A stretch of DNA of 8,019 bases from a virus. Taxonomy: Duplodnaviria; Heunggongvirae; Uroviricota; Caudoviricetes. Position numbers: made by a program. Location of the stretch: the IMG/VR virus record IMGVR_UViG_2541047932_000023; one strand, 5' to 3'. Shown in pieces: positions 1 through 3,000 of this stretch (its first letter is position 1; every line of letters starts with the position of its first letter).

Positions 1-3000
1 ATGGCGAGAAAAACACACCCATTAACCACAGTGCAGATCAAAGCAGCCAGACCAGCGCAAAAGGAGTACACCCTGCAGGACGGCGGAGGGCTTTTTCTCC
101 TGGTCAAACCGTCTGGATCAAAACTCTGGAGATTTTCCTACTACCGACCATCGGACAAAAAAAGAATATTGCTGAGTTTTGGATCGCTTGAAGATGTTTC
201 CCTGGCTGATGCCAGAAAACGCCGTAGCGAGTACAGGACGTTAATCAGTGCCGGAACTGACCCGCAGGACCACGAGAGGCAAAAAAGAGAGACAGAGGCC
301 CGAAGACAAGGGAACACGTTCGAAAATGTGGCGGCGGCATGGTACCAGGTGAAAATCAGCCAGAATCTGGCCCCCAACACGATTAAAGACATCTGGCGTT
401 CGCTGGATAAATATGTATTCCCGTTCATCGGCAACACGCCAATAGATACCCTCACCGCCCGAAGGTTCGTTGAAGTGCTTACCCCCATCAAGGAGCGCGG
501 CAACCTGGAAACACTCAAGCGGGTTTTACAGCGCGTTAATGAGGTAATGGATTACGCCGCCAACAGTGGGCTGATTGATGCCAATCCGGCTATGAATGTG
601 CGTAAGGCGTTTCCCTCACCTGTAAAAAAACATATGCCAACAATCCGCCCCGAACAGCTGCCCGAGCTTATGCAGGCTTTATCAGTATCGGCAACAGAAC
701 GGCAGACCAGATTACTGATTGAATGGCAGTTACTGACCGTAACCCGTCCCGCCGAAGCGTCATCAACGCGGTGGGATGAAATCAACCTGGACGCGAAGCA
801 ATGGACGATACCTGCCGGACGCATGAAGATGCGCAGGGATCACGTTATCCCGCTTTCCGGTCAGGCTATGGCGGTGCTGGAGGCCATGAAACCAATCAGC
901 CACCACCGCAATTACGTTTTCCCAAGTCTGAAAGACCCACAGCAGCCGATGAACAGCCAGACAGCTAACGCAGCATTGCGGCGTATGGGATTCGCTGGCG
1001 TGCTGGTGTCTCATGGATTACGCGCCATATTCAGCACAGCAGCGAACGAGGAAGGATTCGAGCCGGACGTAATAGAGGCGGCACTTGCCCACGTCGACAC
1101 CAACGAAGTTAGACGGGCATACAACCGGAGCAACTACATAGAAAAACGCATCGTGCTGATGCGCTGGTGGGGCGAATTTGTCGAGGCTGCGGCGACGGGC
1201 GTAACCCTCGCCAGTGGTAAAAGGGGTATCCGAGCCGTGTAGCTGTACAGAAAACCAGTAAAAACTACGAAAACCATGTAAAACCGTCGTATAATTGCAT
1301 CAAATTTAACGACAAGGCCGTGAAACATGAAACCGTTAAGATGCAAAAAAATATCAGATGCAATTGCGACGGGCTGCAACTGGCCCTGATGGTTCAGCAT
1401 GAATTTTGGTCAACCTACGATCCGGAGGACAGAACGACGGCCCCATCAAAAAAACAGGTAGTAGATTTTCTGGTATCCCGTGGCGCTTCCAGAAATCTGG
1501 CGGTAAGTATTGATAAGGTCGTACGTCCGGCATCTATGAAGATCGGAGGCAGGCCCAAAAAATGGCGGTAACAATCCTGGAAGCGGCAGAAATGCCGCTT
1601 TTTTTATAATTCCATTTCAAATCATCAATATAAAAAACGGTGTATACCGTTTAAAAACGGTGGGAACTGTTTTTACCCATATCCGATGATTTACCGTATT
1701 TGTCACCGGAATACACCGGATTCACAAGGTAAATCACGATGGAAGCAATCAGAAAAATTATCTTTCGCCAGGAAGTAAAAAAAATTATCCACATCAAGGC
1801 AGACAGCACGCTGCAAAGCATGATCAACGCCGGAGAATTTCCGCAGGGTTTTCGCGTTGGTTTACGCCGTCGCGGATGGTATGAGGATGATGTGTTGTCC
1901 TGGCAGAAAGAACGCGAAGAGGAAGCACGCGGAACGGCTGCTTAACGGGTATCACAGATATGACAAACACGAAAAAAGCGGCCCCGATATGGAGCCGCCT
2001 TTCTGAACAATTAACCCGCTGCGCCTTATGTGTATGTGATCCCAAACATAAGCACGGGGATGATAGCCGCTATCAGGCTGGTGGGCAATGCAATCAGTCT
2101 GGTTCAGTTCGTTGCCATACCTGCAATGAGCGCTTTTCCCTGTACTCTTTAAGGAATTGCTCAAGGGCAAAAGCACATGGCGCGAATCTTTCTGATTCAT
2201 GCTCTATCTTTCTGCGCCGTCTTTTCCGTGCCGGTGATAATGTTTTGGTCAATTCTTTATCGGTCATTGTGTTGTCCTGCATAGCAATGCGCCGTAATAC
2301 CTCACACCACGGCGCTGATAGTTTTTATCCTTTGGGTTCTATGCCGCGTTGCTGTAATTCTTTGCGGAGAACGCGTTTAATCCAAGTGGCTAAAGATGTG
2401 TCGCCATCGGCCTTAGCTGCTTCTTCTAGCTGCGCTCTGAAGTCTTCCGGTAATCGCATTTGGTATGGAGGCGAACGTTTTTCTAATGGTGTTGACATGG
2501 TAATTACCCTTCATTACTATACCCACATGGTAATTACCATTGTACTTGCCATTACACAAAAATCAACGCCCCGCAGTGCTGGGAACACATACGGGGCGTC
2601 TAACCAACAACGTAAACTAGGAGCCGTTATGGTTGCTGTAAATCATATACCACACCTTGTACACACACAAACGGCCTTTGTGTGGCGTTTTCTGGCCCTG
2701 AGTGCCGGAGAATCTCAAATCATCCACGTAACCGCCTGGACGGAACGCGAAGCGCGTAGCCGTTGCCCGTCCGGTTGTGTTGCTGTATTCGCCGCCCGTA
2801 TTCGTCAGGAGGTGTGCCATGTGCAATAAAACCACACCGGACGCAGCAGCCGCCGCGCTCACTACGCTGATGCACGCGCTTATCGATATTGAATGCACTG
2901 CAGAGCTTGCGCAGGGAGAAGAACAGAAAGACCGGACACAGTTCGTCCTGGAATGTATCCGATACACCACCACGCGGTCGCTGAATGACGCTAAAAATAT

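Follow-up and report, generated by a model that had tools for sequence, protein, structure and literature searches.

A probable Arc-like repressor module, paired with a lineage-specific small protein and lying antisense within a P4-type eta/kil frame, in a Gram-negative phage-inducible chromosomal island

What does a compact pair of leftward genes do amid otherwise rightward genes, with an integrase on one side and replication genes on the other? The question is raised by the IMG/VR virus record IMGVR_UViG_2541047932_000023 (Caudoviricetes), a stretch of 8,019 nucleotides (nt) that was analysed whole and that we refer to as the window, in which a gene for a ribbon-helix-helix (RHH) protein and a small partner gene, which we call p57, lie on the minus strand with a terminator of their own (1972-2498). 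The initial annotation took the pair for a possible toxin-antitoxin (TA)-like or immunity module. The immunity part of that proposal stands, because the cassette sits at the switch point of the element, two palindromes lie at promoter-like sites and the operators co-vary with the beta-strand of the RHH protein; the type II TA part does not, given the size of the RHH protein, its phyletic pattern and the way in which alleles assort. We read the cassette as an Arc-like repressor module that comprises a small lineage-specific protein and is set antisense in a P4-type eta/kil frame. Its probable role, with eta-like read-through, is that of immunity (repressor) module in a Gram-negative phage-inducible chromosomal island (PICI), and not that of a TA locus.

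The RHH gene occupies 2325..2498 on the minus strand, as first annotated, and encodes a predicted DNA-binding protein of the Arc/MetJ type, 57 amino acids (aa) long. Its best match among the PHROG families is phrog_228, Arc-like repressor (1.5e-6). An AlphaFold model places helices at residues 18-31 and 36-50 and leaves the N-terminal segment unfolded in the monomer; the beta-strand, which is not formed in this monomer model, falls at about residues 11-16 (QYQMRL), where polar and hydrophobic residues alternate. A Foldseek search of the PDB with the model returned an RHH protein as every top match (AmrZ, Arc, CopG, NikR, and ParD, at probabilities of 0.7-0.9), so that model, structural matches and phrog_228 all agree on a strand-helix-helix fold; a sequence search of the PDB gave only designed helical repeats and AmrZ at an E-value of 0.6. 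We collected 93 homologues from Enterobacterales, Pasteurellaceae, Gilliamella, Aeromonas, and Oceanimonas, nearly all of exactly 57 aa and with an invariant strand-helix-helix pattern. The gene is also read most sensibly in its own direction: its codon-usage score is +7.3 in its own frame versus -8.5 in the overlapping plus-strand frame, and among 28 homologues amino-acid replacements are rarer and milder in the sense frame (21%, mean BLOSUM62 score +0.23) than in the overlapping plus frame (36%, -0.80), a test that doubles as the positive control for the same test on p57. We retrieved 69 genomic loci for comparison of the gene neighbourhood, in which a convergent integrase usually lies 0.2-5 kb from the RHH gene, as in the capsid-forming PICI (cf-PICI) of Pasteurella deposited as "phage Pmp8". 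The window RHH protein belongs to a clade distinct from, and far more widespread than, the YlcI/YnfO proteins, and our literature search found no published function for YlcI/YnfO or for the window-type clade.

The evidence that this protein would act on the adjacent DNA comes from the short region in front of it. The palindrome GGTAATTACC occurs exactly twice in the window, versus 0.17 copies expected (2 of 200 shuffles reach two), and both copies lie within a 17-nt direct repeat, ACATGGTAATTACC(C/A)TT. The first copy, operator O1 (2499..2508), touches the start codon of the RHH gene and falls within the spacer of P_R, a rightward promoter-like site (2492..2520, plus strand) made up of TTGACA (2492-2497), 17 nt, and TACTAT (2515-2520), a match to 10 of 12 consensus positions. 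The second, operator O2 (2529..2538), lies 30 bp from O1, at about +2 to +11 of P_R and just 3' of the -10 hexamer of a leftward promoter-like site, P_L (2539..2566, minus strand; TTGATT, 16 nt, TACAAT at 2544-2539; 9/12 consensus), which is predicted to drive the RHH-p57 transcript. The two promoter-like sites face each other, about 5 bp separating their predicted starts, and the -35 hexamer of P_R overlaps codons 1-2 of the RHH gene, an ATGTCAA/TTGACAT overlap that is kept in nearly all loci. This arrangement is not particular to the window: in about 50 loci from many genera a pair of palindromes recurs at a distance of about 31 bp, of which the proximal one adjoins the ATG, and TTGACA keeps its position. 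In addition, the operators change with the protein, a comparison that took in about 60 loci from many genera. Where the beta-strand carries Met before R-L, the outer operator bases are G..C in 50 of 54 operators; where Ile, Leu, or Phe takes the place of this Met, they are T..A or A..A in all 31; and an F-P-M beta-strand goes with a central ATAT in 8/8. We regard this co-variation as the strongest computational evidence that the RHH protein would recognise the palindromes.

The partner gene was listed as an open reading frame (ORF) of 62 aa extending to 2282 on the minus strand, and the ORF is present there, but its true start is probably the ATG at 2267, giving a protein of 57 aa (2094..2267), because AGGA lies 7 nt 5' of this codon, Met6 is invariant, and most homologues and calls by the Prokaryotic Genome Annotation Pipeline (PGAP) begin there. 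Exactly 57 nt separate this ATG from the stop of the RHH gene in 14/14 E. coli cassettes, including those that PGAP leaves unannotated, and the p57 frame, whose conservation in related elements was at issue, is open in every one of the 14 at identities down to about 60%. Replacements among 11 alleles average -0.05 on the BLOSUM62 scale in its own frame versus -1.33 in the overlapping plus frame. We judge p57 to be a real gene because its ribosome-binding site (RBS), ATG, and 57-nt spacing are conserved, its frame stays open, and its substitutions are conservative in that frame only. The same gene is what PGAP reports in E. coli islands as a "hypothetical protein" of 57-75 aa directly 3' of either a window-type RHH gene or a bona fide YlcI/YnfO gene. 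It is largely confined to this lineage: the 36 homologues are almost all from E. coli or Shigella and mostly of 57 aa from Met6; a profile search of 1.84 billion representative proteins gave 9 matches, one of them a spurious eukaryote-like repeat protein; and a tblastn search of phage genomes found no homologues. Among 5426 complete E. coli genomes, p57 DNA is present in 1505 (~28%) and the window RHH allele in 589.

What p57 looks like as a protein calls for some correction of the initial annotation, which described it as highly basic and of no recognisable family. Its isoelectric point is indeed 9.7-9.9, with 15 Lys and Arg versus 10-11 Asp and Glu, but the description is overstated, as the basic charge is concentrated in residues 13-20 (ARKRRRRK), and both this Arg tract and the C-terminal tail are mosaic, the tract being missing from the alleles of L074a, L077, and L074b. 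No match was found in Pfam, NCBIfam, or PADLOC, and a sequence search of the PDB returned nothing, but p57 does match a PHROG family, phrog_21027 (function unknown), at 1.6e-15. AlphaFold predicts a disordered basic N terminus followed by a single helix (29-59 in the 62-aa form), which holds the conserved core ERFAPCAFALEqFLKEY at predicted local distance difference test values above 90. An 82-aa ORF in another frame of the same strand (1952-2200), over the 3' end of p57, corresponds to the tails of variants P0009, P0017, and P0018 (...EPNLTDHIAHQP...), so a frameshift or recombination near codon 50 would swap the p57 tail while the core is retained. We also observed tandem RHH-p57 cassettes, with different RHH types and p57 alleles, in two E. 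coli islands (L074, 2602-3726; L077, 1608-2852).

Two RNA features delimit p57. The spacer between the genes (2268-2324) contains a hairpin (2289..2315, minus strand) for which an alignment of 13 cassettes gives 9 predicted pairs; one-sided changes retain G-U pairing on the cassette-sense strand, and no compensatory double changes occur among the 13, the hairpin being conserved in sequence only. Downstream, the dedicated leftward terminator of the initial annotation is borne out: an intrinsic terminator at 1972..2004 on the minus strand has a 14-bp stem with 7 GC pairs and a T6 tail, folds at -21.7 kcal/mol (z = -4.75), and is equalled in stability by 0/200 shuffles, and a pattern scan gave no plus-strand terminator at this place. 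It sits between the cassette and the convergent alpA-like gene, inside codons 5-15 of a long plus-strand ORF.

This ORF, which we call eta-like, spans 1960..2829 on the plus strand (289 aa). It starts 14 nt after the stop of the alpA-like gene, and covers in antisense p57, the RHH gene, the spacer between them, and the operators; nested in frame at its 3' end is a Kil/Icd-like gene of 66 aa (2629..2829, plus strand; NF033153 phage_ICD_like, 9e-17), the first gene of the rightward operon. The Kil/Icd-like ATG at 2629 is preceded by an AGGAG RBS, and RBS and ATG context are conserved across loci, whereas the eta-like ORF as a whole has family matches only at residues 228-289 (NF033153 and three PHROGs). 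In 12 E. coli islands the corresponding frame remains open over 221-607 codons, starting where the plus-strand gene before it (alpA, BRO-N, or antA/B) finishes. It ends exactly at the Icd-like stop in 8/12, and in two others it stops 8-19 nt short of the Icd-like start; no domain was found in these long ORFs besides the terminal Icd-like one. The longest, in L077, is a single frame of 607 codons open across both of its tandem cassettes. Importantly, the frame also stays open in the segments that are non-coding for the leftward genes, with 2 stops in about 629 codons versus 32 and 52 in the other plus frames. The plus frame at 1960-2829 therefore does not look like noise; E. coli islands seem to maintain it as an open frame, and we infer that the 57-nt spacer, of 19 codons, holds both leftward genes in the stop-poor phase. 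The coding content of the region, called ambiguous at the outset, is aptly so described, as both strands seem to carry selected frames.

Automatic annotation reflects the same ambiguity. PGAP is inconsistent over 1960-2498 in relatives (H1-H31, H67-H74), where an identical RHH gene, and often p57 as well, is omitted in favour of plus-strand "Icd-like protein" and "ash family" pseudogenes; for diverged islands its calls are the pair of leftward genes. A further ORF of 118 aa (2617-2973, minus strand) is placed exactly antisense to the Kil/Icd-like gene. It has a match to phrog_4106 (function unknown; 2.5e-48), and its codon-usage score is no worse (+4.3 versus +2.3 for the Icd-like frame); we treat it as a probably mis-called frame, given the conserved rightward start context and the fact that P4 Kil is a described protein. 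The Kil/Icd-like ORF also contains, 35 nt in, a terminator-like hairpin on the plus strand (2664-2693; CACACAAACGGCCTTTGTGTG followed by GCGTTTTCTG), which might act as an attenuator and recalls the early termination seen in the immunity of P4 and P1.

Of the other ways to read the cassette, a type II TA module, with the RHH protein as autoregulating antitoxin and the basic 57-62-aa protein as the toxin that it binds and neutralises, is suggested by the layout: the order of RHH gene and small partner, the compactness, the cassette's own terminator, and the promoter palindromes all resemble RHH-type TA operons, some sources name RHH homologues "HicB family antitoxin", and the Foldseek matches include antitoxin RHH domains (CopA_SO, ParD, MazE9, AtaR). 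The proteins themselves do not fit. The RHH domain fills the whole 57 aa, with about 7 residues beyond helix 2 and no C-terminal toxin-neutralising extension, and p57, a predicted disordered tail and single helix, matches no toxin, defence, or Pfam family. Neither do the genes behave as a cognate pair: they are parted by a 57-nt spacer with a hairpin, neither overlapping nor tightly coupled; the RHH gene is kept in at least 60 loci of other genera (L003-L071) that have no p57 homologue and no consistent downstream ORF; an identical p57 is found beside unrelated YlcI/YnfO-type RHH proteins (L076 and E. coli CFT073), and a near-identical RHH protein beside a very different p57 (L077). The operators, moreover, lie on the promoter of the satellite's replication operon and not just on that of the cassette. 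On domain size, phyletic pattern, independent assortment of alleles, and the lack of a toxin or defence match we reject the TA reading, which we hold to be very improbable; if there is a toxic product here, it is more likely that of the rightward Kil/Icd-like gene, which the RHH protein would repress. A functional partnership of another kind, with p57 as co-repressor or anti-repressor, or as an Arg-rich RNA-binding peptide acting on the hairpin of its own leader or on a nut-like RNA of the helper phage in the style of HK022 Nun, would account for its fixed place behind the RHH gene in 14/14 E. coli cassettes, 57 nt away and after a conserved hairpin, for its N-terminal Arg-rich tract and amphipathic helix, and for its presumed expression in the quiescent state, on the transcript of the repressor. 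We think it unlikely, as alleles L074a, L077, and L074b do without the Arg tract, alleles assort regardless of the type of RHH protein, the spacer hairpin shows no compensatory covariation, no sequence or structural tie to N or Nun came up (no search was aimed at one), and the RHH-bearing islands of other genera work without p57.

The remaining alternative concerns the plus strand. If only the leftward genes were functional, the frame at 1960-2628 would be a shadow ORF mis-called as "Icd-like / Ash pseudogenes", and induction would come from removal or titration of the RHH protein, for example by an anti-repressor of the helper phage, as for Stl of the Staphylococcus aureus pathogenicity islands (SaPIs). 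The frame shares its third codon positions with both leftward genes and meets 0.76 stops per RHH gene versus 2.1-2.6 in the other antisense phases; synonymous shuffles keep it open at P values of 0.1-0.8 per gene; residues 1-227 match no family, and substitutions are radical in the plus frame. Outside E. coli the frame is broken in 28/58 RHH genes, and the frame of the first rightward gene is closed within at most 138 nt upstream in 35/48 loci and continues through the RHH gene in 13/48, so that translational read-through is no general requirement of RHH-bearing islands, a point that also counts against our own reading. Within E. coli, however, the shadow-ORF view is dropped, because the frame is open over segments where no leftward gene constrains it (the 3' region, spacer, operators, and leader) and is anchored at the alpA end and at the Icd-like stop; its length of 221-607 codons and the documented eta/kil architecture of P4 argue the same way. 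Overall we regard this alternative as rather improbable.

The reading that we prefer, of a repressor module with eta-like read-through, has further points against it. The RHH protein falls short of the family cutoffs, both for Pfam PF03869 Arc (E 0.038; 14.3 bits versus a cutoff of 20.4) and for NCBIfam NF041551 YlcI/YnfO (E 0.0014; 18.7 bits versus 30), and its Foldseek E-values are weak (at least 0.57), the domain being very small. P_R and P_L are consensus matches only, and a promoter scan of the 1.5-kb region gave 4 sites versus 2.6 expected, which is not significant. The counts that associate beta-strand with operator ignore phylogeny, and the codon-usage score of p57 gives no discrimination between frames. 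On the plus strand, no Shine-Dalgarno sequence is evident for the eta-like ATG (1960), and a strong hairpin lies 12 nt inside the ORF. Finally, every step of the mechanism that we propose is read from sequence.

In the quiescent state of this proposed mechanism, RHH dimers would bind O1 and O2. Occupancy of O1, between the -35 and -10 hexamers of P_R, would shut off the Kil/Icd-like gene together with the replication-packaging operon, and occupancy of O2, at the start of P_L, would let the RHH protein limit its own synthesis. The gene for p57 would be co-transcribed with that for the RHH protein past the conserved hairpin, the transcript stopping at the 1972-2004 terminator, and p57 would be an accessory protein of the E. 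coli lineage whose basic tail and helix could serve to bind nucleic acid or a partner protein; it would be dispensable for repression, since most relatives have no p57. On induction, a transcript entering from the alpA side would be translated through the eta-like ORF, like eta/kil of P4; this translation would melt the terminator hairpin at codons 5-15 and block Rho termination, a step to which the conservation of the open frame lends indirect support, and RNA polymerase would then continue in antisense through cassette and operators as far as the operon, bypassing the repressor and interfering with its transcript. In its strongest form the proposal is that about 540 bp (1960-2498) are functional on both strands, with repressor, p57, promoter, and operators antisense inside an eta-like ORF that is translated yet unconstrained in sequence, and that transcription driven by AlpA both overrides RHH immunity and silences the repressor convergently. 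We put this forward tentatively, as a possibility on the doubtful side; if true, the island would have a bistable satellite switch of fully overlapping antisense genes, one that would also be present, unannotated, in the model island EcCICFT073 and in roughly one E. coli genome in four.

Between P_L and the Kil/Icd-like gene lies a leader with a conserved RNA element of its own. A hairpin at 2566-2599 is followed by an invariant TCTRACCA at 2599-2606 (2566..2606 together, plus strand), and in an alignment of 47 loci 9 of its 12 pairs have compensatory changes, with a covariation score of 0.194 versus 0.080 +/- 0.007 in shuffles (0/500 reach it) and at most 0.109 in slid controls. The minus strand folds about 10 kcal/mol better in 51/51 loci, with a run of T after the hairpin on that strand, and the hairpin may serve to terminate leftward transcription or may mark where an antisense RNA ends. 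The leader (2566-2628; L003-L065) accompanies the RHH gene and its operators whatever the first rightward gene is (Icd-like, primase, or 113-aa proteins), and by eye it includes a small hairpin that presents the Shine-Dalgarno sequence before ATGGCT. A second leader helix drawn by hand, with the Shine-Dalgarno sequence in its loop, was set aside; it was mis-registered in alignment A4, with 36% of positions paired, and has by-eye support only.

We also looked for the RNA-based immunity of P4-like elements. No Rfam match to a C4, CI, or isrK RNA was found in the whole window at E<=1 or in 2480-2900 at E<=10, and no Pfam match to Phage_ASH in the window. The related island L001, from E. coli O103 RM8385, has a segment of about 300 bp (7013-7316) between two Icd-like copies that matches isrK (66 bits) and C4 (77.6 bits) and has an Ash-like translation. 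This C4/isrK segment is what the window does not have, at about 2655-2712, the RNA immunity module being lost, and the single Icd-like gene of the window looks like a recombinant of two copies of the L001 type. Since the segment is absent from the window, the RHH protein appears to be the only recognisable immunity factor in this island.

By its gene content the window is a Gram-negative PICI. Rightward, it carries a P4-type tyrosine integrase, a small ORF, and an AlpA-like helix-turn-helix (HTH) gene (1739-1945) before the leftward cassette and the Icd-like gene, and after these DUF4222, a RepA/AAA_25 helicase, an SSB-like gene, TerS, and a capsid-like gene. For a Gram-negative PICI or cf-PICI we looked for these genes within about 8-16 kb at a dedicated attachment site, and integrase, AlpA, replication module, and packaging or capsid genes were all found among the window genes; the relative L001 is bounded by tRNA-Pro and yejO, and the left arm shares the architecture of EcCICFT073. 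The layout matches that of published PICIs (PMC6092414, PMC10111431). Window positions 1-2712 are 99.7% identical to L001, which lies between tRNA-Pro/yejM and yejO, and the same layout was found again at other attachment sites, in the Pasteurella cf-PICI Pmp8, and in EcCICFT073. As expected for leftward coding amid otherwise rightward genes, the AT skew is negative only over 1951-2550. The AlpA/Vis-like HTH gene (1739..1945, plus strand) is convergent with the cassette and directly 5' of the eta-like ORF; it matches Pfam Phage_AlpA at 0.0028, below the cutoff, and a PHROG of excisionases and transcriptional regulators at 2.5e-6, and PGAP labels it AlpA family or HTH regulator in relatives. 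A gene for a 307-aa "phage major capsid protein" closes the island (window 7096-8019; L001 11572-12963), so that the window ends at its stop codon, and yejO comes next in L001. The island carries TerS and this capsid-like gene, without the portal, protease, or TerL of capsid-forming PICIs.

These findings offer a concrete candidate for how Gram-negative PICIs stay silent: a 57-aa RHH protein, or one of the YlcI/YnfO type, with two operators on the promoter of the replication operon. The candidate repressor is conserved from E. coli to Pasteurella, Gilliamella, and Oceanimonas and is present in EcCICFT073, and automatic annotation often puts a plus-strand "Icd-like pseudogene" in place of the real RHH gene. 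The predictions are directly testable in an existing genetic system.

Several known systems share parts of this arrangement. TA loci with RHH antitoxins (ParD-ParE, RelB-RelE, CopG-type) have the same gene order, small size, RHH gene in first place, and promoter palindromes, but the window RHH protein has neither a toxin-binding tail nor co-variation with a cognate partner, and the partner is not conserved with it and has no known toxin fold. Stl and Rpr of SaPIs and Gram-positive PICIs are likewise leftward regulators on the integrase side that face a rightward replication-packaging operon and so keep the island quiescent (layout, PMC6092414); they are larger HTH proteins lifted by helper-phage proteins, whereas the window RHH protein has 57 aa and no obvious sensor domain, and the known route of induction in Gram-negative PICIs is activation by AlpA. 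The immI region of P1 and P7 (c4 - icd - ant) also begins with an Icd-like gene whose translation is tied to downstream transcription, and L001 has both isrK and C4 beside the same RHH cassette, but the window is without the C4/isrK segment, no ant follows, and an RHH protein takes the place of C1 at the promoter. In immI of P22, Arc and Mnt control the facing promoters Pant and Pmnt, with operators that overlap promoter elements. The window resembles this in its RHH protein of similar size (~53-57 aa), its palindromes on facing promoters, the expected autoregulation, and the control of an "early/anti-immunity" unit; it differs in that sequence similarity is marginal, the gene downstream codes for a 57-aa helix protein and not for the Ant antirepressor, the element is a satellite in which the repressed unit is Kil/Icd-like followed by replication genes, and the cassette lies antisense in a long ORF.

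The closest architecture on the plus strand is that of P4 eta/kil, with the promoters PLL and PLE (Forti et al. 1999, as summarised in PMC10111431). There, kil is the in-frame end of eta, which also contains a constitutive promoter; only the upstream late promoter, coupled to vis (an alpA homologue), gives translation of full-length eta, this translation prevents termination, and Kil functions in cell killing (PMC10111431). In the P4 sequence we find the eta frame open for 217 codons and ending in the 65-aa Kil, which matches NF033153 at 1.6e-21. Over-expression of P4 Kil reportedly killed cells in the work of Forti et al. in 1999. As in P4, a Kil/Icd-like gene of 65-66 aa comes first after an internal promoter, as the in-frame end of a long ORF adjoining vis/alpA that is open yet without a protein family upstream of Kil; such a nested end, with one long ORF running from alpA/vis to Kil/Icd-like, is found in the window, in 8/12 E. 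coli islands, and in P4, and P_R would be the counterpart of P4 PLE. A pairwise BLAST of the window Icd-like protein with P4 Kil gave no alignment, the relationship resting on the shared NCBIfam profile. Unlike the window, P4 eta holds the seqA/CI RNA region (Pfam Phage_ASH; Rfam C4/isrK), and L001 has both; P4 in turn lacks homologues of the RHH protein and of p57, and its eta contains no antisense gene that is convincing, whereas the window adds a protein repressor at the internal promoter. The logic of P4 eta/kil thus appears combined in the window with a protein repressor that overlaps it in antisense.

A further comparison is with the YlcI/YnfO proteins (NF041551), small uncharacterised prophage proteins that often hold the RHH position in E. 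coli islands, followed by the same spacer and p57; the window RHH protein falls under the cutoff of that family and forms a distinct 57-aa clade. The 2018 study of EcCICFT073 identified AlpA as an activator and left open whether a repressor exists (PMC6092414), and our literature search found no paper linking PICIs with RHH or YlcI/YnfO function. EcCICFT073 (CFT073 from 1,377,930) contains an integrase, an HTH/AlpA gene, the leftward 57-aa C_RS30800, the leftward YlcI/YnfO gene C_RS30120 (67.4 bits to NF041551), the rightward Icd-like C_RS30125, and a primase. High locus-tag numbers suggest that these genes entered the record only when it was re-annotated later. The p57 protein of EcCICFT073 shows 100% identity to that of the window, and its leader is the same. 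Its YlcI/YnfO-type RHH protein is paired with a different direct repeat, GTGGGCCACACCT, which occurs twice (L084, 9653-9853), in the spacer of a rightward TTGACG...TATAGT promoter-like site and just after its -10. These positions are those of O1 and O2, which suggests that repressor-operator specificities have been exchanged as modules.

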